Source: a virus (taxonomy: Duplodnaviria; Caudoviricetes). From it: DNA of 64,000 nt. The stretch covers positions 23,339 to 87,338 of IMG/VR virus record IMGVR_UViG_3300001528_000407, one strand, 5' to 3'. The notes beneath the pieces were generated by a model. The model searched no databases. It worked only from the letters and a program-made list of their open reading frames with translations, and was not told the origin of the DNA. The translations under genes were made by a program, and so were the position numbers. Shown piece by piece: positions 1-52,221 of this stretch (positions are counted from its first letter, which is position 1; each line of letters opens with the position of its first letter).

Positions 1-44
1 ACGTGTTGATGTTAGATAATATTTCTCCCATGATTCTGCAACCT

Positions 45-581
45 TTAGATGTTTATATTGCCGCTTCCTGATAGAATACGATATTGTCGAGAAGAGAGGT
101 CGGCGATAACCGTATTATACACCATTAATAAGTAAAGAATATCTTCAGAAAGTGAAAAGATGAAAACTTGCAACTTTGGGAGCTGGTAGTATCGCCAAGG
201 TTTCTTCGATATATAATTTTCATTCCACCATTTTTTATCATCCTTCTTGACAAAGAAAGGTAAAACGTTATGATATGGAAGAACCGATTTTGTCAAGACG
301 CAAGCATGATGAACGCCCACCGGTGTATCATCGAATTCTATCGCTGTAGGAAAACTTGCTCTGAATGGATTCTCTACGGAAGAAGGGGGAACGACTTTGT
401 TGTTATCCTCCTCTGATTTATAAAGTCCACGACTAATAGAAAACCAGGCGTTCTTTTTGCCATCGGAAATATCTTTCTTTCGGGCTATGTATATATCGCC
501 AAGTCCTGCAATATCACCTACAAAGTCTTCATACGAATCTAATTGTACTGGCATACTTTTTATTTTTGATTTAACAACCAT
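45..581 (-). CDS. hypothetical protein
   Basis: 178-aa ORF co-oriented with and overlapping the upstream gene; no recognised motif. Confidence 0.6.
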   Translation of the reverse strand: MVVKSKIKSMPVQLDSYEDFVGDIAGLGDIYIARKKDISDGKKNAWFSISRGLYKSEEDNNKVVPPSSVENPFRASFPTAIEFDDTPVGVHHACVLTKSVLPYHNVLPFFVKKDDKKWWNENYISKKPWRYYQLPKLQVFIFSLSEDILYLLMVYNTVIADLSSRQYRILSGSGNINI

Positions 582-1126
582 TCATTATAATACATATCAC
601 CATTTAAGGGAACGATGCAACTTGCATTCAGCACATTTTGCCAATCACCTTGCACGCTGCTAGGAAGCACCGTGGGCAGTTGGCTAATTTTGATAAGAGA
701 AAAATTTTCTTGCGAAATGTAAGATACATAATTCACCTTCGGTGTATAATGAGGGTAGAAACGGTAAAACGTCGCATTCTCCGTAGTCGCTGTAATAAAG
801 CCTAACACCTTGGGTTGTGCTCGATGGAATTTCCATGCAAAATACGCTGTTGGGTCAACGTAAGTTTCTAATGTAAAGTGTACACTTACCTCGAATCCCT
901 TACGATACCCCAGTGGTTCCACTAACGGAGAGGTACACCATTCTACCGGTATCTTTTCTATGCCATAAACTCCCGCCAAAACTTTTCCATATCGGCTATC
1001 CCTAAAAAGGTCTTCGATGGTTAATGGTTTTGCAGGAGGTTCCCAAGGCTTCCCATACACGAGGTAAAAACCCTTGATGTTCTCATCTATCTTACCAGGA
1101 ATAGTTTTAGTCTCTTGCTCTTTCAT
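560..1126 (-). CDS. hypothetical protein
   Basis: 188-aa ORF in the minus-strand operon. Confidence 0.65.
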   Translation of the reverse strand: MKEQETKTIPGKIDENIKGFYLVYGKPWEPPAKPLTIEDLFRDSRYGKVLAGVYGIEKIPVEWCTSPLVEPLGYRKGFEVSVHFTLETYVDPTAYFAWKFHRAQPKVLGFITATTENATFYRFYPHYTPKVNYVSYISQENFSLIKISQLPTVLPSSVQGDWQNVLNASCIVPLNGDMYYNEWLLNQK

Positions 1127-1198
1127 TGTCTTATTGTTTTCATTAAAACTCTGTAAATCCTTGTTGTCTATATCAACCTCGCAAAAACGATAATTTCA

Positions 1199-1330
1199 TC
1201 AATCAAAACTCTCCACAAGAAAAACATTTTCTTGCCAAGCGTTAATCGTTATCGTAGGACAAAGGCTTGTCTTTAGAAACAAACCTTTGTTCTGCCCTCT
1301 TGGGTATTGGAAGAAGAAATGTCTTTTTAT
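1199..1330 (-). CDS. C5-MTase TRD-like module Tb, lacking its own ATG (ATA at the coupled position)
   Basis: (I)KRHFFFQYPRGQNKGLFLKTSLCPTITINAWQENVFLVESFD*; PTIT motif and hydrophobic-E C-terminus as in the 41.7-44.8 kb modules; the junction reads CTATAAAAA where other modules have ATGA. Confidence 0.55.
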   Translation of the reverse strand: MKRHFFFQYPRGQNKGLFLKTSLCPTITINAWQENVFLVESFD

Positions 1331-1490
1331 AGTTCCACCAATATCTTTGGCTCTATTCCACCCCCCCACATGTATGGCAAGCGGGAGCGATGCCTTGGGG
1401 ACTGAATACCCTGCGGCAAGACTCAAAACGCTTGTCATAGGGAGGGGTGTCTATAGAGCCTAAGACGATGGTGTGGATATTCTTATTCAT
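1327..1490 (-). pseudogene. C5-MTase TRD-like mini-gene Ta, poly-G OFF allele
   Basis: ATG overlaps the stop of 1483-2376; G7 (C7 at 1361-1367) gives ...CHTCGGVE*; G8 gives MNKNIHTIVLGSIDTPPYDKRFESCRRVFSPQGIAPACHTCGGGGIEPKILVEL* (54 aa). Confidence 0.75.
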
Positions 1491-2376
1491 CATCGCCATG
1501 GTTCTCGTCGGGATTCTCGTCACGGTTCTCTTCCTGTGCTGACTGCTCGTCGTGATTTTCTTCCTCGTTCCAATCAAGCGTCTTCACCAGGAAGGAGATA
1601 CCCTTGCCAAACTCTTTTTCCTCGTAACCACGATGCAAGTACCATTTCAAGACCCATTCCTCTGCCTCTCGGATATTCCACTCCAGGGCTACCGTCTTGC
1701 AACCTTGCTCCTTGGCGTTGCGCTCGGCTACTTCCAGTAGTCTTGTGGCGATATGACGGTTGCGGTAGGCTCCATTCACCCAAAGGGCATAGATGAAGGC
1801 ATCGCACTTCTGCCAGAAATCATCCTTCTTGCGCTCGTCCTCAGTAGGAATATCAAGATGCACATTGCCCACTACCACACCATCGTGGATGGCATTGGCG
1901 AGGTATCGGGTGCATTTGAACCATTTCTGAATATTCGTGGTGATACTGAAAGAGAAGGACGTGATACGTACCTGAATGCCTTCGCCGTGGGTTTCATCGC
2001 CTTTATCATCGGCTGGCTTGTTGTCGCCATTACCGTTGCCTTTTTCGTCCTTGCCATTATCAGGGTTGCCATTGGCTGCTGCATCAGATGCAAGCATATC
2101 GTAATCCACACCGAGTTCCTTGGCTCTCATGCGAAGATCCTTTTCCCTTGCCCATCGCATCATGCAGGAGAATATCCAGATGGCTACGACAAAACTAACC
2201 ACCACATGACTCACTGCTTGCTTGCCTACGGTGAAGAAGAGCTGCGATAGCTCATCGGGGTGGCAGACATCGAACGTCCATTGCAGCAGGGCATTGAACG
2301 CTAACATCAGGATGAGGGTTACGAGTATGGGCATCGAATAGATGCCCAATCGCTTCAAAAATCTCTTTGCTTTCAT
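1483..2376 (-). CDS. membrane-anchored GNAT-family acetyltransferase
   Basis: Two N-terminal hydrophobic segments; C-terminal LWVNGAYRNRHIATRLL (acetyl-CoA binding motif A) and WYLHRGY (motif B). Confidence 0.7.
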   Translation of the reverse strand: MKAKRFLKRLGIYSMPILVTLILMLAFNALLQWTFDVCHPDELSQLFFTVGKQAVSHVVVSFVVAIWIFSCMMRWAREKDLRMRAKELGVDYDMLASDAAANGNPDNGKDEKGNGNGDNKPADDKGDETHGEGIQVRITSFSFSITTNIQKWFKCTRYLANAIHDGVVVGNVHLDIPTEDERKKDDFWQKCDAFIYALWVNGAYRNRHIATRLLEVAERNAKEQGCKTVALEWNIREAEEWVLKWYLHRGYEEKEFGKGISFLVKTLDWNEEENHDEQSAQEENRDENPDENHGDDE

Positions 2377-2416
2377 ACTTCTTTTCTTTCTTGTCTTTTA
2401 TGTTATTTATGCTTCA

Positions 2417-2638
2417 TTATTTTCTCATGATTACCTTGTCGCCTCTCGTTACCCGAAAGATAAGAGGGGCGAAGATGTAGCGATGGTTGCCACCAGCCTT
2501 TCTTGGGCATCCGTCCTTTCGGCATACTTTGCCATAGAATGCCCATTCTCCACAGATATGCTCCATCCTCTCTACGATGATGCTCTGCTGCTTGGTGGCG
2601 ACTATATCGCCTATCTGGATATTAGTTACGTCTATCAT
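2417..2638 (-). CDS. hypothetical protein
   Basis: 73-aa ORF, ATGA-coupled to the upstream gene. Confidence 0.6.
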   Translation of the reverse strand: MIDVTNIQIGDIVATKQQSIIVERMEHICGEWAFYGKVCRKDGCPRKAGGNHRYIFAPLIFRVTRGDKVIMRK

Positions 2639-3387
2639 TCTATTTTCTTCCCATCCACTGCATCATGCACCAGCTTCTCATTATCCAACAAATCCTTTGG
2701 CACATTCATTGCATCGAACACACCACATAGGCGAAGGAAATGTTGAAGCTCATGCACGGCGATGAATTGTGCCACGGCTGCGGCGTTATAGGTGTTATAG
2801 CTACCCCTGCCATCGGTCTGCTTCACAGGCTTCACTATCTGCACGATGATAGCCTTGCACTTGCTTTCGGTCTTGCTGGCTACCCAACTCAATCCTTCCT
2901 CCTGCAACTTATCCTCCAGGTCGTGATCCTGATAAGTCAACTCGAAGCCTACGGCGTAATAGGTGGCCTGCCATCTTCGAGCCTTAAACTCGTAGGCGAA
3001 AGCTACTTTCAAGTCGCTGTCCCTTGGTTTCATCGTCTCGCTATCCGACAACTTGCGGAATATCGCCGAGTTCTCGGCGAACCAATCTTCCGAGAAAGGA
3101 ATGATGGTGAGGTTGCTGATAGGCTGGGTACAGTAATTGGCAATAATCATTTCTTGCGTTATAGCCTTGCCCATCCATTTCATCTGACGATAGCGGGCAG
3201 TATATATCTCGGCATACTTCTTGGAATATTCCGAGACGATGCAAACCTCACGTTCCTTTGGTGTGCCGTCCTCTTCCGCCATATTGCCATATACGAAGTC
3301 GCCCACCGTCAATTCTCCAAGCTGAAAATCCTCATCCTCATCGTGTCGGATGAATCCTACATTATTACTATTGCTCTTCTTTGCCAT
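2635..3387 (-). CDS. hypothetical protein
   Basis: 250-aa ORF in the operon. Confidence 0.7.
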   Translation of the reverse strand: MAKKSNSNNVGFIRHDEDEDFQLGELTVGDFVYGNMAEEDGTPKEREVCIVSEYSKKYAEIYTARYRQMKWMGKAITQEMIIANYCTQPISNLTIIPFSEDWFAENSAIFRKLSDSETMKPRDSDLKVAFAYEFKARRWQATYYAVGFELTYQDHDLEDKLQEEGLSWVASKTESKCKAIIVQIVKPVKQTDGRGSYNTYNAAAVAQFIAVHELQHFLRLCGVFDAMNVPKDLLDNEKLVHDAVDGKKIE

Positions 3388-3604
3388 ATTGCTTACATTT
3401 ATCTATTATTCTCCTTGCGTTCTTGTCTATTCTCAATGCGTTGCCCTTAGTTACCAACGCTGCACTCAGCTGCGCGAACAGACCAGCAAGATTGTTGAGG
3501 TTCTCCATATCCTTCATATCGAGATACCCTTTGTCTCTTCTTGCCTTCACAGTCACCTGCCCCGATTCAAAATCACAGGTGATGGAAACAACTACCTTTG
3601 CCAT
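3368..3604 (-). CDS. hypothetical protein
   Basis: 78-aa ORF overlapping the next gene. Confidence 0.6.
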   Translation of the reverse strand: MAKVVVSITCDFESGQVTVKARRDKGYLDMKDMENLNNLAGLFAQLSAALVTKGNALRIDKNARRIIDKCKQYGKEEQ

Positions 3605-3618
3605 ATCCTTTTTAATAT

Positions 3619-4398
3619 TTATACTTTCTGCGCAATCTTTACGTTTGCGTCCGTATCATCTTGTAGCGAGAACTTTTCCTTGTCGCCATATTTCTTTTTC
3701 AGTCTCTCTAGGCTATTTTTCAAGACAGCCATTACCAAGTCTTCCGACATGTGCCCTGCATCAAGCTCCTCACCATACACGCAAAATGGGAGAACATCAT
3801 TAAGATAGAAATCCTTCATATCATCTCTATCCACATTTTCGTATGGCACGAAGTCGATGGATTCGATAGATGCTATCACATCGTTATCATCTGACTTGTA
3901 TCGGGAGATAACGAAACCGCCAGGGAACACCGTCAATACGAACTTTTCGACAAACACCATCTTGCTTAAAAATGCAGGTATCGCTGCCAACGCTTGCGCC
4001 ACCTCCTGCTCGGTAGGTTTCTTATATCCCCATATCGACGATACATAAGCACTCACAAAGTTAGGATGATAACGAGTATTGAAGTTGTAGAATCGCCAAC
4101 AACCGTTCTTCGTCTTCGTCAGCATATCCGTCTGCACGTCTCTGCCATCGGCATAATGATAAGCCACCGCATAGATGCAGCCCTCCTCGTTGCGAGTGAC
4201 AAACTCCACATCGGTCTCGTTCCGTTCCACCTCCCTCGGCTCTGCCATACGCTTGATGGCATTGTTGAATTTCAGGTAGGCGGTCGAATCGGTGTATTCA
4301 TCGCCATAGAAAGTGGGTGCCAAACCGATGAGGTCTTCACTCTGATTATTCTCTTTGATGAGACCCAACTTCTTAGGGTCGAGTATTCCAATATCCAT
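3619..4398 (-). CDS. hypothetical protein
   Basis: 259-aa ORF with a short spacer to its neighbours. Confidence 0.7.
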   Translation of the reverse strand: MDIGILDPKKLGLIKENNQSEDLIGLAPTFYGDEYTDSTAYLKFNNAIKRMAEPREVERNETDVEFVTRNEEGCIYAVAYHYADGRDVQTDMLTKTKNGCWRFYNFNTRYHPNFVSAYVSSIWGYKKPTEQEVAQALAAIPAFLSKMVFVEKFVLTVFPGGFVISRYKSDDNDVIASIESIDFVPYENVDRDDMKDFYLNDVLPFCVYGEELDAGHMSEDLVMAVLKNSLERLKKKYGDKEKFSLQDDTDANVKIAQKV

Positions 4399-4410
4399 AC
4401 TTTCGTCTCC

Positions 4411-5595
4411 TTATCTATTAGGATCTACCGTGATGTTGTATTTCGCCAAGACTGGCACAAGTCCGGTCATTACTCCCCTGCCAAGGAGAGGCACTGAGTC
4501 GAGCGCACTGCGAGGTATCACCTTCTTCTTAGGCAACTGCTCTTTGCTGGCTTCCTCATCGAGAAGCTTCTTGCAAGCTGCCAACTCCTTGTCGGCATCG
4601 TCTCGCTCGTCGAGGGCTTTCTTGTATTTGGCATTCAGTTCATCATATTGCTTCTGTGCCTCCCTCGCCTCGGCTCTCTGCTTGGCGATGAAGTCGGAAG
4701 CCTTCTGCGCCGTGGCTTGATAATCCTGTAGCTTCGCACTTAGCTCGTCGATTTGCGTTTGCAGGTTTGTAACTACCGTTTGGTGATCCGCCTGAGCGTC
4801 CGACATCTGTTGCATGTGCAGGATATTGAGGTTCTCGATTTCCTTCTGCTGGTCATTGATTTTCTTACGCAATACATCGCTGTCCGCCGCTGTGACGATA
4901 TAATTGCCCAAGCGGTTGATGTTCTGCGAGAGGATGGCAAAGAGACCCTCGGTCTCGCTCTCCAAGGACAGGGCATCATCGGCGGTGAGGATATAGCTAT
5001 CATCGTTCCACCAATCGGGGCGAGTGATATTCAGCTTGCCCGATGGCTGCTGTGCAGCTCGGTTGCTGGCTTGCATATCTGGGGTATTGGCTTGCGTATT
5101 GCTACCCGTACTACCTCCATTCGTTTGTACCTCTTGGTTCTTATCCTGGGCATTCTGCTCCTCGGCGTTATCCATATCCTTCACCACGTCGATAGCGGAA
5201 GGCATATCACCCAACTTATCGTAGTAGTTATCCTCACGGGCATCCAGGGCAAGTCTGCCCTCATAGACATCCCAAAGGTTGTTGTCGATGAGATAGTAGA
5301 TAGCCCCAAGCACGATGTGCGCTCCATATTGGTCGATATACTCGTTAATCGGCGCAACCCATCGCTTGCGCACCACCATATCCAGCCACTCCTTATATAC
5401 CTTGCCATTGAGCATGTTTTTATCCTCTTCCTTCTGATAACAGGAGGCGATACGAGGGATAACGTAGAGCGGTTCGGTCTTCTGCAAGAAGTTCTCGTAG
5501 TTGATGCCGAGAGCCATGCGCACCATGTTGCTCACGTTCTTAAATTGATATTTCTTCAGCAAGGAGCGAAGAACGTTTTGTTGCTTTGTATTCAT
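4411..5595 (-). CDS. coiled-coil protein
   Basis: 394 aa; heptad-rich C-terminal half (LRKKINDQQKEIENL...). Confidence 0.7.
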   Translation of the reverse strand: MNTKQQNVLRSLLKKYQFKNVSNMVRMALGINYENFLQKTEPLYVIPRIASCYQKEEDKNMLNGKVYKEWLDMVVRKRWVAPINEYIDQYGAHIVLGAIYYLIDNNLWDVYEGRLALDAREDNYYDKLGDMPSAIDVVKDMDNAEEQNAQDKNQEVQTNGGSTGSNTQANTPDMQASNRAAQQPSGKLNITRPDWWNDDSYILTADDALSLESETEGLFAILSQNINRLGNYIVTAADSDVLRKKINDQQKEIENLNILHMQQMSDAQADHQTVVTNLQTQIDELSAKLQDYQATAQKASDFIAKQRAEAREAQKQYDELNAKYKKALDERDDADKELAACKKLLDEEASKEQLPKKKVIPRSALDSVPLLGRGVMTGLVPVLAKYNITVDPNR

Positions 5596-5645
5596 AATTA
5601 ACCTTGTTTTGATTGACTGATTCGATTTCTTCTGATTATCGTAGC

Positions 5646-6626
5646 TTATTTCTTACTACGTTTTCTCTTGCTTGGTGATGCGGAAGTAACCCGTTCGCCT
5701 ACGGTGGCATACATACAGTCCACCATGTTTGCTTTCTTCAAGCAGATATAGGTGCCCACGATGATGTCACGGAAGGCGCGGCTCATCTTGCAGTTCTGAA
5801 ACAACACTTTAATGATATTCACCCTGCCCTGCTCGTCTTGCTCGCTATTCAGCACATTGGTGAGGCAGTGCATCGTCTCACCCTTGGCTGGCTGCTGAGT
5901 GTAAGGATTGCCCTCGATATGATAGAGAGCCAGGGTAGTAAGCTGCTGCGGATGGCGAAGCTGAAACTCATGCACCTTATCCTTGAGGAGCGACATCAAC
6001 TGCTCGAAGTCTTCATGCAAGTTCTTCAAGCCATCGACGAATGCCAAGAAATCGACTGCGGTCTGCTTGTCGGACAGAATGGCTTTCAGCTCCTCACGGC
6101 TCATCGTAAGGTCTGGCTCCTCTTGCAGGAGCAATTCTATGCGCTGCTCGATAGGGACGGTTTCATCTTGCAAGGCTTTCTCGAAAGATTGCTTTGCCTC
6201 TTCCAGTCGAGCCTCCATTTCTTTGAGCGACATAGAGCCATCGTTGCTTTCCTTGGGGATAGTGACGGCGGTCTTGCCATCAAACATTTCGTATCTCGCA
6301 CCCATCAGCCAAGACTGGAGGTTGATGTAATGATCCTTGTCGGCATGGGCGATATTCGCCTCGGTCCACTCCGAGTATTGTTCGTAGGTCATGTGGTGCA
6401 TCAGTATCAGCACCATTTCTTCGGGAGTAAGAAAATCCACTCCGTCGAAATCACAGGTGCCACCCACCACGCCACCTACCCAGTAAGGGCTGCGGCATCC
6501 CTCAAACAGTCGCTCGTTCACCTGCTCGGCGAGGTCGAGACAAGACTGCTGGAAGGCATTGATGGCTTCGAGAGCCTTATCCTTTTCGGGAGTCTCCTGC
6601 TTATTATCATTCTTATCTTGTGCCAT
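5646..6626 (-). CDS. hypothetical protein
   Basis: 326-aa ORF with a central coiled-coil. Confidence 0.7.
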   Translation of the reverse strand: MAQDKNDNKQETPEKDKALEAINAFQQSCLDLAEQVNERLFEGCRSPYWVGGVVGGTCDFDGVDFLTPEEMVLILMHHMTYEQYSEWTEANIAHADKDHYINLQSWLMGARYEMFDGKTAVTIPKESNDGSMSLKEMEARLEEAKQSFEKALQDETVPIEQRIELLLQEEPDLTMSREELKAILSDKQTAVDFLAFVDGLKNLHEDFEQLMSLLKDKVHEFQLRHPQQLTTLALYHIEGNPYTQQPAKGETMHCLTNVLNSEQDEQGRVNIIKVLFQNCKMSRAFRDIIVGTYICLKKANMVDCMYATVGERVTSASPSKRKRSKK

Positions 6627-26933: not shown

Positions 26934-27787
26934 ATGGTAAGCGAACAATTACAGCGCAAGATAGACCGAGCTATTCACCTGCTGCAAAGCGTGGCTAAGG
27001 GATATGATGGCGAGATAGAGGTAGCCTATTCGGGTGGCAAGGATAGCGATGTTATCTTGCAGCTCGCTAAAGAAGCTGATATTCGATATAGGGCTATCTA
27101 CAAGAATACAACCATCGACCCGCCTGGCACAATAAAACATGTGCAGGATATGGGTGCCGAGATATTGCGACCTAAGCAGACGTTCTTTCAGCTTTTGGCG
27201 AAGAGAGGCTTTCCCTCCCGATTTAGTCGATTCTGTTGTGCTGAATTGAAAGAATACAAGGTATTGGATAAAGCTATTGTTGGTATTCGCCGATGCGAGA
27301 GCGATAAGCGAGCCGAACGTTACAAAGAGCCTACTCTTTGCCGATACTACGGTGCCAAGCGAGAGGAAAATCATGTGGAGCAAATCTTGCCTATCTTGGA
27401 TTGGAGCGATGATGATGTCTTGCAGTTTATCGAAGACCGTAAGATAACGCTTGCACCGATATACTACAATTCTGGGGGGGGGTAATCGACGTTACTCAAC
27501 GTTTGGGCTGTATGTGCTGCCCACTTGCCACAGAGCGCAAGCGTATTCTCTACTTCAAGAAATATCCCAAGATGGTGAAAGCCTATCTTCGGGCTGGCAT
27601 GAAATTCAGAGCCTCGCATCCTGATAGTTATTGTGTCGCCCATTACGATGATGTTTACGAATGGTTCACCCGTGATGTATTCTACCCAAGAAAGAAAGAT
27701 TGGGATAGAGTGAGCGGTGGGCTTTTCGAGAAGCCAGACTATAAGGCTTTCTTGGAAAAAGAATTTGGCATAGATTTGACGCTATGA
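26934..27787 (+). pseudogene. PAPS-reductase-family protein split by a G9 tract (probable phase-variable OFF allele)
   Basis: YSGGKDS, RFCCAELKE, GIRRCES and PILDW in frame 1; TCT GGG GGG GGG TAA at 27471-27485; G7 or G10 continues as VIDVTQRLGCMCCPLA. Confidence 0.85.
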
Positions 27788-29005: not shown

Positions 29006-29776
29006 ATGATAGAACTGAATAAGATATATAATGAGGATTGCTTGGAGGGTATGAAACGCATACCCGATGCAAGCGTGGATTGCATTATTTGCGATTTGCC
29101 TTACGAGGTACTAAATCGTAGTAACAAGCATGTGCAGTGGGATAAGGTTATTCCGATGCAACCGCTCTGGGAGCAATACCTACGTATCGCAAAGCCGAAT
29201 GCAGCTATCATTCTCTTCGGACAGGGCATGTTTACCGCACAACTCATGATGAGCCAGCCCGATATTTGGCGATACAATATCACTTGGGATAAAGACCGAA
29301 AGACTGGTTTTCTGAATGCAAAGCAGATGCCTTTGCGACAGACGGAAATCATTTCGGTGTTTTATCGTGAGCAACCAGTTTATCATCCGCAAATGCGAAA
29401 GTGTTCTAAGCATGAGCGCAATCATAGCAGAGGCAGACAGCAGGGAAAACAAACTAATAGATGTTACGGTTCCTTCGGCAAAGCTGAAGACTTGATTACT
29501 GATGAGAAATATCCATCAGACCTTATCACATTCCAAAGAAACGTACACGATAGTTGGCATCCTACGCAGAAGCCTCTTGACCTTATCCGCTATCTCGTTC
29601 GTACCTACACCGATGTGGGGGGGTGCATTCTTGACAACTGCATGGGCAGCGGCACTACCGCCATCGCTTGTATCAAAGAGAAGCGCAACTTTATGGGCTT
29701 CGAGTTGAACAAGGAATATTACGACAAGGCTTGTGAGCGCATCAAATTAGAAATGATGCAGCCCACACTATTCTAA
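29006..29776 (+). CDS. beta-class N4/N6 DNA methyltransferase with an in-frame G7 tract
   Basis: DLPY (motif IV), HPTQKP and DNCMGSGTT (motif I); G7 at 29617-29623 just before motif I. Confidence 0.9.
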   Translation: MIELNKIYNEDCLEGMKRIPDASVDCIICDLPYEVLNRSNKHVQWDKVIPMQPLWEQYLRIAKPNAAIILFGQGMFTAQLMMSQPDIWRYNITWDKDRKTGFLNAKQMPLRQTEIISVFYREQPVYHPQMRKCSKHERNHSRGRQQGKQTNRCYGSFGKAEDLITDEKYPSDLITFQRNVHDSWHPTQKPLDLIRYLVRTYTDVGGCILDNCMGSGTTAIACIKEKRNFMGFELNKEYYDKACERIKLEMMQPTLF

Positions 29777-33998: not shown

Positions 33999-34597
33999 AT
34001 GAGTAAAGATTGGACGGGCGGTAGAGCCGCTGTATTCAAGACGCTTGGAGCGAGCAACCACAAAAATGGCGAGCGACAGCGTGAGGACTACTATGCCACG
34101 GAGCCTGCGGCTACCGAATGGCTATGCAAGATTGAGGATTTCGGGGGGGTAAAATCTTAGAGCCTTCCTGTGGAGAGGGACATATCAGCAAGGTTCTTTT
34201 GAAGCATGGGTATGATGTTACGAGCCGAGACTTGATAGACAGAGGATTTGGCGAGGGCGGTCAAGATTTCCTTGCCATTGATAACTTGTCATGGCAGGGG
34301 CATATCGTCACCAACCCTCCCTACAAGTATGCGCAAGAGTTTGTGGAGAAGGCATTGCAGATTATTCCGCCAGGATATAAGGTGGCTATGCTGCTAAAGC
34401 TGACGTTTCTTGAAGGAAAGGCTCGTAGGTATTTATTCAATACACAGCCACCTGTTAGGGTATGGGTGAGTTCTTCGAGACTGAAATGTGCGATGAATGG
34501 TGATTTCGATGCAACCGAGGGTAGCGCACAGGCTTATGCTTGGTTCGTATGGGAGAAAGGATATAAGGGAGACACCATCGTGAAATGGTTCAACTGA
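33999..34597 (+). pseudogene. small N6-adenine DNA methyltransferase frameshifted at a G7 tract (probable OFF allele)
   Basis: MSKDW...DYYATEP...DFGGVKS* with G7 at 34143-34149; G8 gives FGGGKILEPSCGEGHIS (motif I) joined to IVTNPPY (motif IV). Confidence 0.85.
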
Positions 34598-34954: not shown

Positions 34955-35268
34955 CTATAATTCCACAAACACGCATAGCTGCTGCCCATTGCTCGTAAGG
35001 GCATTGGCAAGCCTACCCCCCCGATTGTGCGGCTTCGCCTTATCGCCGAGGTGGGGTAAGCGAGGTCACACACACCAAGCACAGGGCAATCGGTGTAGCC
35101 TTGCTCCGTGGCTTGGCGTATGCGCAAGAAGGTATCGCCCGTCTCTACCTCGTTCACCAACTGGAGAAAAGGTCGGGAGGTGTCGTATATTCTATATAAT
35201 GTGCCATCGGGATAGAAGCCATATAGCTTGCCATCCTTCACGATGGTGCCTCGCTTGTAGTGTGACAT
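34955..35268 (-). pseudogene. C5-MTase TRD-like gene T11, poly-G OFF allele
   Basis: IRQATEQGY...CDLAYPTSAIRRSRTIGG; G7 (C7 at 35016-35022); G8 gives GGGRLANALTSNGQQLCVFVEL*. Confidence 0.7.
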
Positions 35269-42821: not shown

Positions 42822-43007
42822 TCGTATTCATACATTACAACCGTCATTGGATAATGGGCGAGCGAGAGGATATTGGTAGGCCCGATATTCTCATATCTCG
42901 TGGTGATAGTCGCCGCACAATTATCGCTTGTTACATTTATCGGTCGTCGAGTACCCCCCCCTATAATTCAAGCAAGGTATGCCGACGTTTGTCAGTCTGA
43001 ATTTCAT
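42818..43007 (-). pseudogene. TRD-like mini-gene T3, OFF (G8; G7 is ON)
   Basis: ON: MKFRLTNVGIPCLNYRGGTRRPINVTSDNCAATITTRYENIGPTNILSLAHYPMTVVMYEYE*; C8 at 42954-42961; ATG overlaps the MTase TGA. Confidence 0.75.
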
Positions 43008-44407
43008 TTCTTATCAGAAGGTTTTCTATTCAGATTCTCCAAATACTTTTCCTCGAACCCTGGATATTCACTCGGCAAAGTACCGTCCTGCTTCCACGAT
43101 GAATAATCATAGGTAAACTTCCCGATAATCATTTTCTCGCAAATGAGCTTATCCAGTTCGGTAGGCTTCATCTTCCACCCATCAACCTCTTCCATCCAAT
43201 ACGTGAGCCAAGTCTTCAAGAACATGGCATCCTCATGCTTGGGTGGCAAATCGAAAGTTACGAACAATGCGCTGTCCTTGTCGTTCGCCTTGAGAAACTT
43301 TGCCACGGCATTGTCTTTGAGGAAGTACTTTTCATCCACCTCCTCTTCCAACACATCCTCCAACTTCCTTTCGAGCTTCACAGGCTTAGGAAACTGATAG
43401 TCGAAAGCCACGTCTTTTCTCATCGAGAGGCAGAAAACTCGATCTCGATTCTGAGGCACACCGTAGTCCTTGGCATTCAGTCGTGCCCATCGGTTCACGT
43501 AGCCAAGTTCTTCCAACCGTTTGAGCCACTTCTTGAAATCGGGCATAAACTTCTCGCTTACCAGTGCCGCCACATTCTCTTGCAGGAGATATTTAGGTTT
43601 CAATACCTCGATGGCATCGGCTACCTTCCAAAGCAAGGCACTTCGGGTGTCGCTACCCTCTTGCAACCCCATCTGCTTACCAGCCTGACTAATGTCCTGG
43701 CAAGGTGATGAGTAAGTGAAAAGGTCAACCTCTCTGCCTTGCAAACTCTCCTTCACCTTCTGCCAGTCTATCTTGGTAATATCGCCGAGTGCTCGGTGAG
43801 CGAACTGAGGGAAGACGAGGTTGTGCATTTGGCAAGCATATTTGTCGATGTCGCTCCAGCCATAGCAGGTGTATTTGAAATCGGGGTGTTCCTCTCGTAA
43901 GGCATCGGCTGCCATCAACTGACTGTCATAGCCGCTGAAGGTAGTGATAATGACTTTCTCCTCGGGTACCACCTTATCCTCATCGCTGATAACGATATTC
44001 TCATCATGCGGATTCTTCTCCACTGGCATCGACGGCAATACGTCTTCGGGGAAGAAATCATCGAAGAGCGAGGCTTGTGCCTTTGGCTGCACAGGTGCAG
44101 GGTACCAAATCTGCTCATATATCTTCTTCAACACATCTACCACGATACTGTTGCCGGCTTGCTTGTATTGTTGGCTGGCGGATATGAGCATATCATCGTC
44201 CTTGCCTTTCAGCTTGCCGAATATCTTGCTGAACATTTCCTTGCCAAATGCGCTCGATATGCGAGTCTTGGCGAGGGAGATTGTACTTTGCATCAAGAGG
44301 ATGATTCCGTCTCTGACACCCATCAGGCGAAAACACTCCTTGGGTGTGAGCTTGCGGATGGCATAGCTCTTAATGCTCTGGTCTTTGAAATTTATCTTCG
44401 TTATCAT
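43004..44407 (-). CDS. circularly permuted DNA (cytosine-5)-methyltransferase core lacking a TRD
   Basis: N-terminal IRKLTPKECFRLMG (IX) and YKQAGNSIVVDVL (X), then TFSGYDS (I), SSPCQDIS (IV), LQENV (VI) and YGVPQNRDRVF (VIII). Confidence 0.9.
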   Translation of the reverse strand: MITKINFKDQSIKSYAIRKLTPKECFRLMGVRDGIILLMQSTISLAKTRISSAFGKEMFSKIFGKLKGKDDDMLISASQQYKQAGNSIVVDVLKKIYEQIWYPAPVQPKAQASLFDDFFPEDVLPSMPVEKNPHDENIVISDEDKVVPEEKVIITTFSGYDSQLMAADALREEHPDFKYTCYGWSDIDKYACQMHNLVFPQFAHRALGDITKIDWQKVKESLQGREVDLFTYSSPCQDISQAGKQMGLQEGSDTRSALLWKVADAIEVLKPKYLLQENVAALVSEKFMPDFKKWLKRLEELGYVNRWARLNAKDYGVPQNRDRVFCLSMRKDVAFDYQFPKPVKLERKLEDVLEEEVDEKYFLKDNAVAKFLKANDKDSALFVTFDLPPKHEDAMFLKTWLTYWMEEVDGWKMKPTELDKLICEKMIIGKFTYDYSSWKQDGTLPSEYPGFEEKYLENLNRKPSDKK

Positions 44408-45232: not shown

Positions 45233-45544
45233 TCAATGGGTAATAAATCGGGTGCCATCCACCTCCAGCACCAATATATCATTTACCACCCTTATCTGCT
45301 TGCTCTTCACAAACTGCACCATGCGCTGATGTCGCAATACATCCACCTTTAGGCAGACGCATTCGCCTTCATCCACATGCCCAGTCTTGGTGAGAAACTT
45401 GATGTAGAAAGGCTTTCTCTCTACCTGTCTCGCCGATTGTGGGTGGACGTACCCCGTAACGAGCTGCCCGCTACGAGGGTCTATCCACTGCCACTTCTCG
45501 GTGAACTGTCTAAGATTGGTATAACTTTGAGTATATCTTGTCAT
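45233..45544 (-). CDS. hypothetical protein
   Basis: 103 aa, ATGA-coupled. Confidence 0.7.
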   Translation of the reverse strand: MTRYTQSYTNLRQFTEKWQWIDPRSGQLVTGYVHPQSARQVERKPFYIKFLTKTGHVDEGECVCLKVDVLRHQRMVQFVKSKQIRVVNDILVLEVDGTRFITH

Positions 45545-51942: not shown

Positions 51943-52221
51943 GACGAAAGATAGACCCACCGAGATAGGCGAGGCCAAACTTCAAGTGTTCTCCACCAAG
52001 CCATTTCGCAGTGTTACAAGCCCTTCGCTCTGTGCTCCCGAAGCCCACAAATTCGGGGGGGGTACTGGGTGTGGTCGGAGCTTTAAATCTGTAAAGACTC
52101 AGCTCCCCTCCCCGATTGCGTCCATTAAAGCACAGTGCTTTGATGGGCACAGCTTGATGTCGTTAGGAACGAATGCAGAGGCGTTTCCGCTACTCTTCGC
52201 CTTTCGGGGGTCTATATCGTC
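51943..52221 (-). ncRNA. candidate structured non-coding RNA (about 280 nt)
   Basis: Long closing stem GACGA.TAGACCC...GGGTCTA.TCGTC, GCG-GAAA-CGC and C-TTCG-G loops, several internal hairpins; intergenic upstream of the primase gene. Confidence 0.5.

Follow-up and report, generated by a model that had tools for sequence, protein, structure and literature searches.

In the textbook view, DNA cytosine-5 (C5) methyltransferases consist of a single chain with an inherent DNA specificity. The multispecific C5-methyltransferases of the Bacillus phages SPR, phi3T, rho11s and H2, described by the Trautner laboratory, reportedly elaborate on this plan with short modular target-recognition domains (TRDs), each of which is said to confer one specificity. 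Departures from the single-chain arrangement are also described: M.AquI and M.EcoHK31I are two-subunit C5-methyltransferases, and M.AquI is split within the variable region (summarized in PMC3404938). Variable methylation specificity is known from phasevarions, where repeats are present in Type I hsdS (PMC7383803) or Type III mod (PMC10123105) genes. A literature search turned up no account of C5 TRDs encoded as separate genes, nor of phage TRDs switched by a poly-G tract.

Here we describe a pair of mini-genes, which we call Ta and Tb, in a 64,000-nucleotide stretch (the window) of an 87,338-bp phage record. We regard it as probable that Ta and Tb are free-standing specificity subunits of a single permuted, TRD-less C5-methyltransferase core encoded elsewhere in the genome, and that Ta is gated by a hypermutable poly-G run.

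Organization of the GNAT-Ta-Tb region

Ta and Tb follow a gene coding for a predicted membrane-anchored acetyltransferase, and all three are transcribed from the minus strand (Table 1). The acetyltransferase ORF has hydrophobic segments at its N-terminal side together with the GNAT domain, and its stop codon (1485-1483) lies among the candidate ATG start codons of Ta at 1499, 1493 and 1490, such that the start of Ta overlaps the end of the GNAT gene, as had been noted in a preliminary description of this DNA. Homologues of the GNAT gene also precede Ta in five related loci (L081, L082, L089, L091 and L092); a pattern scan of viral contigs returned no relatives of the GNAT protein.

Table 1. 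Coordinates of the Ta and Tb mini-genes, the presumed methylase partner and associated features in the window.
Feature	Position	Strand	Description
Tb, second stand-alone TRD module	1199..1330	minus	43 codons (1330-1202), QYPRG...PTITI..., stop TGA 1201-1199
79-codon ORF	1199..1438	minus	ATG 1438-1436; open at G7 through the run into Tb
Ta C-terminal strand, G8 frame	1327..1360	minus	...PKILVEL, TAA 1329-1327; out of frame in the window
Ta as assembled, stand-alone TRD mini-gene	1353..1493	minus	cut short at G7; ends CGGVE, TAG 1355-1353
G7 homopolymer, the putative switch	1361..1367	minus	G7 on the coding strand, C7 on the plus strand
Membrane-anchored GNAT acetyltransferase gene	1483..2376	minus	297 aa; Pfam PF00583 Acetyltransf_1, 2.1e-10
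G-run-bearing TRD mini-genes	around the methylase and 34955-35268
TRD-less C5-methyltransferase core, presumed partner	43004..44407	minus	PF00145 3.5e-53; circularly permuted, motifs IX-X then I-VIII

The reading of Ta depends on the length of the G run that it contains. As assembled, with G7, the gene is truncated shortly after the run; addition of one G (G8) gives a complete peptide, and removal of one G (G6) or addition of two (G9) gives a frame that begins CGGWNRAK... and continues into Tb. Tb has ATA (1330-1328) as its first codon, overlapping the G8-frame Ta stop as ATAA, where relatives have ATGA. All of these readings agree with those of the preliminary description, which had also equated G7 with the absence of a TRD; this last point is too simple, as it missed the 79-codon ORF that reaches Tb when the run is G7. 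The 79-codon ORF is specific to the window, and the relatives have Phe codons and no ATG at the corresponding place.

There is no Rfam match in window positions 1-4000, and scans of positions 500-2700 found neither a sigma-70 promoter, the consensus for which may not fit the host, nor a terminator separating any of GNAT, Ta, Tb and the gene that follows. The GenBank phage collection contains no DNA match to positions 1-6000. Ta and Tb each occur once in the genome, which led to rejection of the possibility that they had been duplicated from modules in the array beside the methylase.

Relationship of Ta and Tb to target-recognition domains

The preliminary description had taken Ta and Tb to be TRD homologues, and sequence comparison bears this out. 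The read-through of Ta and Tb is colinear (E = 4e-13) with residues 302-368 of a C5-methyltransferase in a second viral record, a segment located between motifs VIII and IX, and tblastn matches bearing on the same homology range from E = 4e-11 to 1e-5. This enzyme (L100; 487 aa, PF00145 3.8e-67) has the canonical motif order and four tandem TRDs, of which the second is Ta-like and the third Tb-like, the same order as in the window; its gene is at L100:1598-3061 (IMGVR_UViG_3300009826_000045). In two further PF00145 proteins (L101 and L102), a Ta-like TRD and the motif IX that follows it belong to one polypeptide. On these alignments Ta and Tb are true homologues of C5-methyltransferase TRDs, and the four-TRD enzyme of L100 is likely to be a picture of the fused ancestor of the mini-gene system. 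Pfam searches with the Ta and Tb peptides alone gave no match at E values up to 10, the peptides being short and the region the variable one of these enzymes, and a PDB profile search with Ta relatives gave chance-level matches only and no C5 methylase.

Both modules are common as separate genes. Public data contain 204 stand-alone Ta-like proteins (29-104 aa), which are unnamed or annotated as hypothetical, with the exception of one of the 120 listed, to which JGI gives the name DNA cytosine-5 methyltransferase. Tb-like loci number 48, and their ATG is mostly part of an ATGA overlap. Ta and Tb modules are found in an array beside the core in L083, and the same is seen in many phages. The window Tb retains all of the residues that are invariant in Tb.

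The methylase core and the remote position of Ta and Tb

The presumed partner is the only PF00145 gene in the genome, and it ends without the recognition segment that is normally found between motifs VIII and IX. It has 246 relatives in IMG/VR, and 73 of the 77 that were inspected have an unbroken, TRD-less core of 432-467 aa whose N-terminus matches that of the window core; in the other four (L029, L040, L042 and L059) the ORF stops early, at 47, 101, 101 and 280 aa respectively. Its best protein matches in the GenBank phage collection have less than 60% identity.

Ta and Tb are about 41.6 kb from this gene, in agreement with the earlier remark that the pair lies far from the methylase, and this remote placement is maintained in the two closest near-complete relatives (G001 and G002). 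The cores of these are 85-86% identical to that of the window, and the GNAT-Ta-Tb block is also present, with distances from core to Ta of 42 kb (G001) and 39 kb (G002). Ta is intact with G8 in both, and Tb is a 43-aa ORF whose ATG overlaps the Ta stop as ATGA. The distance of the remote pair from the core makes an explanation in cis or by read-through impossible.

Other relatives present a different picture. The clade of L089, L091 and L092 retains GNAT-Ta in records with no PF00145 match, and two of these records, G006 and G007, are 85-86% complete. G007 is syntenic with the genome of the window from 6.8 to 84.9 kb, and the entire segment with the third TRD locus, the array and the core is missing from the syntenic place; no other TRD-like module was found in G007, the relative examined for this. 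Poly-G runs are nonetheless kept in the PAPS-reductase and NPPY-methylase homologues of G006 and G007 (L152-L158 for G007), and the tracts of G007 are G7. In both genomes the GNAT-Ta block is positioned about 2-3 kb below a homologue of window gene 45233..45544. Retention of Ta in these records weighs against the proposed role of Ta as a subunit of the core. For the L089/L091/L092 clade, the core may be in unsampled sequence, or Ta may be a recent relic, or it may have another partner.

Predicted association of Ta with the core

A complex was predicted from the window core with its family alignment and a Ta family alignment, in which the reference row was Ta of L089, whose C-terminus is the same as that of the window G8 reading. 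The predicted complex scored 0.88 in three runs compared to 0.01 for the best of three controls; at the mark adopted for this score, 58 of 80 solved complexes pass, as do 2 of 110 mismatched pairs. The three runs have at least 80% contact agreement, and the pLDDT of the partner is at least 74. The closest predicted contacts are between Ta residues 50-57, which form the terminal strand, and core residues 13-20, a strand just before motif IX, and Ta residues 31-42 are predicted to contact core residues 318-322 (motif VIII) and 345-350. This is the pattern expected from the covalent order in L100. The prediction supports docking of G8 Ta at the position that a TRD in the same chain would occupy, although the docking score may reflect likeness to solved single-chain C5 methylases, because the pair is in effect a split gene. 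The suggestion of action in trans is, for Ta, favored by the modeling.

Length variation of the G run

Long G/C runs are conspicuous in the 87-kb genome as a whole. There are 1068, 143, 13 and 2 runs at lengths three to six and 8, 4 and 1 at lengths seven to nine; the runs of seven or longer, of which about 0.1 would be expected, are therefore in roughly 100-fold excess. GGG is the rarest glycine codon (8% of Gly codons). The G's are on the coding strand in at least 12 of the 13 long runs, and the runs are almost all in DNA-modification genes.

The run in Ta has a different length in different genomes. Among seven orthologous runs there are three of G8 (L087, L088 and L089), three of G7 (the window, L091 and L094) and one of G6 (L092), and the orthologues with G8 have intact ORFs of 57-59 aa. 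L089 (G8) and L091 (G7) differ in run length despite 100% identity across the upstream 600 bp, and L092, with G6, is 99.3% identical upstream. Ta protein variants in public records fit a G10 form that is OFF and interrupted tract forms that are locked ON. Across 80 core loci, comparison of sites with identical 30-bp flanks shows variable length at 19 of 39 G/C-run sites as opposed to 7 of 103 A/T-run sites. The role of the G run as a length-variable on/off switch of Ta, which had been put forward from the window alone, is well accommodated by these alleles.

In spite of this variation the G8 frame is constrained. There are 20 synonymous and four non-synonymous changes between the G8-frame Ta of the window and that of L089 (dN/dS about 0.03), and over the ten codons that follow the tract the two proteins are identical and the DNA changes synonymous, this segment being out of frame in four of the seven genomes. 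Judged by sequence comparison, the Ta tract is the signature of a contingency gene with transient OFF states.

Several other runs in this genome are of note. A G9 run at 27474-27482 (plus strand) is at the end of a gene with a PAPS-reductase domain (26934..27485; Pfam 3.4e-13), and the frame encoding a Cys-rich RLGC..CP tail requires G10 or G7; this gene, a DNA-modification gene that is not a methylase, also appears to be gated. A G7 run at 34143-34149 (plus strand) breaks an adenine-methylase-like gene with an NPPY motif, the C-terminal part of which is ORF 34199..34597 and has no Pfam match on its own. The G7 run at 29617-29623 (plus strand) is in frame within an N6_N4_Mtase gene (29006..29776; 8.5e-29). 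A G8 run at 52055-52062 (plus strand) is in no recognizable coding frame but lies between a minus-strand gene of 1231 aa and a plus-strand ORF of 117 aa, and may be a spacer-length switch of a promoter. Finally, there is a C7 run on the minus strand 8,930 bases before the window start and about 50 kb from the core (G000:C1:14408-14414; L151:409-415). One additional G extends the reading to an end (...PALRATDYK...ILHEYA) similar to the first TRD of L100 (E = 0.005, from one comparison), and it is possible that this is a fourth TRD mini-gene locus.

It is quite unlikely that the G7 of Ta is a homopolymer miscall in a genome that really has G8, an intact Ta and no switch. The record is an assembled metagenome contig and three relatives do show G8, but the thirteen G/C runs of seven to nine are concentrated in DNA-modification genes and call for different corrections, +1 in most and -1 in some, with two already in frame. 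Moreover, A/T runs of at least seven were not seen to break genes (seven of 17 are inside intact long ORFs and ten are outside long open frames), which makes a general homopolymer error unlikely, and across assemblies made independently the variation in length is specific to G/C runs.

We also think it improbable that full-length Ta is produced from G7 by -1 ribosomal frameshifting or polymerase stuttering, which would make the OFF allele leaky or constitutive. The run begins on a codon boundary and requires a -1 shift, which is also true of several other genes that are broken in this genome, and G runs can support slippage. However, the frameshifted layout is not conserved as it would be for a programmed frameshift, three of the seven orthologues being in frame at G8; other runs in the genome need the opposite shift; and RNA folding downstream of the run is unremarkable (z = -1.35). 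Together these three features make conserved recoding unlikely, and leaky slippage at the RNA level is possible.

A broken Ta and a Tb without a start codon could alternatively be what is left of a multispecific methylase that was once fused, now decaying and without a function. The core-less relatives keep Ta with drifting run lengths, and L092 has a Pro-to-Ser change in a conserved loop, both of which fit with Ta being a relic in that clade. As an account of the locus in the window this is nevertheless very unlikely, given that Ta and Tb are both under purifying selection, that no invariant residue of Tb has been lost, that the overlapped starts and stops are conserved and that there are hundreds of intact stand-alone homologues.

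Expression of Tb

A further proposal in the preliminary description was that one tract selects among three outcomes, with no TRD made at G7, Ta at G8 and a Ta'-Tb fusion at G6 or G9, Tb having become run-dependent after loss of its start. The frames are indeed as described, and Ta-like and Tb-like TRDs are naturally fused in L100. The window also has three changes of its own that would fit the proposal: the Tb start is ATA in place of ATG, a TAA in the bridge has become AAA (through CCT to CCA, which is synonymous in Ta), and there is a new ATG at 1438. The Tb coding sequence remains constrained, with dN/dS of 0.13-0.21 relative to G001 and G002. We nonetheless consider the proposal unlikely, and give only an outside chance to a lineage-specific version in which these three point changes have created a three-position selector, with Ta made at G8, the Ta'-Tb fusion at G6 or G9, and Tb at G7 from the 79-codon ORF.

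Comparison with the relatives weighs against a selector in several ways. The check that had been suggested, whether homologues of Tb retain ATG, gives a clear answer, as all 48 do, and ATA is unique to the window. In the six closest Ta orthologues, which are those with an uninterrupted run, a TAA blocks the bridge: in G001 and G002 the G9/G6 frame ends after four codons (CCT AAG, where the window has CCA AAG), and in four orthologues that lack Tb it ends at the same TAA after WNRA. The bridge is only 11 codons long, so that finding it open is near a coin-flip. The CTA TAA ending that gives ATAA is also present in L094, which lacks Tb, and it may have arrived with a recombined Ta allele, destroying the Tb ATG in the process. 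In addition, the fusion would replace the terminal strand of Ta, which is predicted to dock on the core and to make the closest contacts with it, with out-of-frame residues.

The arrangement is also not a recurrent one. Related loci have 226 distinct G runs; at only about four of them does a second long frame lead on into the following module, which in at least the two clearest cases visibly keeps its own Met. At L040:5394 and L001:5448 the second frame at the G run enters a following TRD module that has its own Met, and read-through fusions are thus occasionally possible in the family.

A model for free-standing specificity subunits

Starting from the homology, gene anatomy, run-length polymorphism and purifying selection observed here, we infer that the core binds Ta, that methylation is altered as an outcome, and that switching takes place within a phage population. 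In the model that we favor, each small protein would bind the core non-covalently, with the last beta-strand of the TRD protein placed against the N-terminal strand of the core before motif IX and the recognition loop adjoining motif VIII. Binding would rebuild the small domain of the enzyme and add one methylation specificity. Ta would be ON at G8 and OFF at G7 (as in this assembly), at G6 and probably at G10, and slippage at the run during replication would yield a phage population that is mixed for the Ta specificity.

Tb would normally be made from its own ATG, coupled to the Ta stop as ATGA, and has no run of its own. In this genome, with ATA in place of ATG, it is probably silent or weakly made, and its reading at G6 or G9, or from the ATG at 1438 at G7, would be an accidental by-product of overlapping frames, not a designed third state. 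Because the Tb coding sequence is still constrained, the loss of its start could be recent, or Tb could still be made, whether as the G6/G9 fusion, from the 79-codon ORF at G7 or by weak initiation at ATA.

New here are the conserved TRD locus about 40 kb from the core, the natural ON and OFF alleles of one tract, the selection on the ON frame and the negative outcome for a three-state selector. In this system the specificity part of a C5 methyltransferase would be a free protein of 43-57 aa, whose gene is distant from that of the enzyme and can be switched on its own by a G run. If the predicted binding and switching are correct, many methylation patterns could be written with one small core, and phage populations could be hedged against the diversity of restriction systems in gut bacteria, methylation-dependent ones included. 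Should a three-position selector operate after all, the length of one slippery tract would decide which of two DNA motifs is protected in the phage. Conservation of the remote pair across three genomes makes for a clean and small test case composed of the core and one 57-aa peptide, and the system could offer plug-in retargeting of a cytosine methylase.

Comparison with known systems

The closest parallel is with the multispecific enzymes of the Bacillus phages, in which, as here, several short modular TRDs serve one catalytic core; the L100 methylase is an enzyme of this type. In the Bacillus phage enzymes the TRDs are part of one polypeptide, between motifs VIII and IX, whereas here each TRD is a gene of its own coding for 43-57 aa, and the pair is 40 kb away. 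M.BssHII is said to keep its own TRD, which the core described here lacks. The two are alike in circular permutation, motifs IX-X preceding motifs I-VIII in M.BssHII (mentioned in PMC5944983) as they do in the product of 43004-44407.

M.AquI and M.EcoHK31I share with the present system the assembly of a C5 methylase from separate polypeptides (PMC3404938). Their small subunit contains motifs IX-X or IX alone and has one fixed partner; in the system described here the small subunit is a TRD only, there are many alternatives to it, and some are gated by G runs. Type I HsdS (PMC3874165) is likewise a separate DNA-recognition subunit that acts in trans on a methylase core, as we propose for Ta, but the fold and stoichiometry are unrelated and HsdS is much larger, at about 400 aa with two TRDs. 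As in phasevarions, a homopolymer or repeat within a coding region shifts the frame of a methylation-specificity gene, and its length varies between near-identical genomes. Phasevarions are bacterial, involve Type I and Type III systems and regulate host genes, whereas the gated gene here is a phage C5 TRD mini-gene that presumably functions in escape from restriction.
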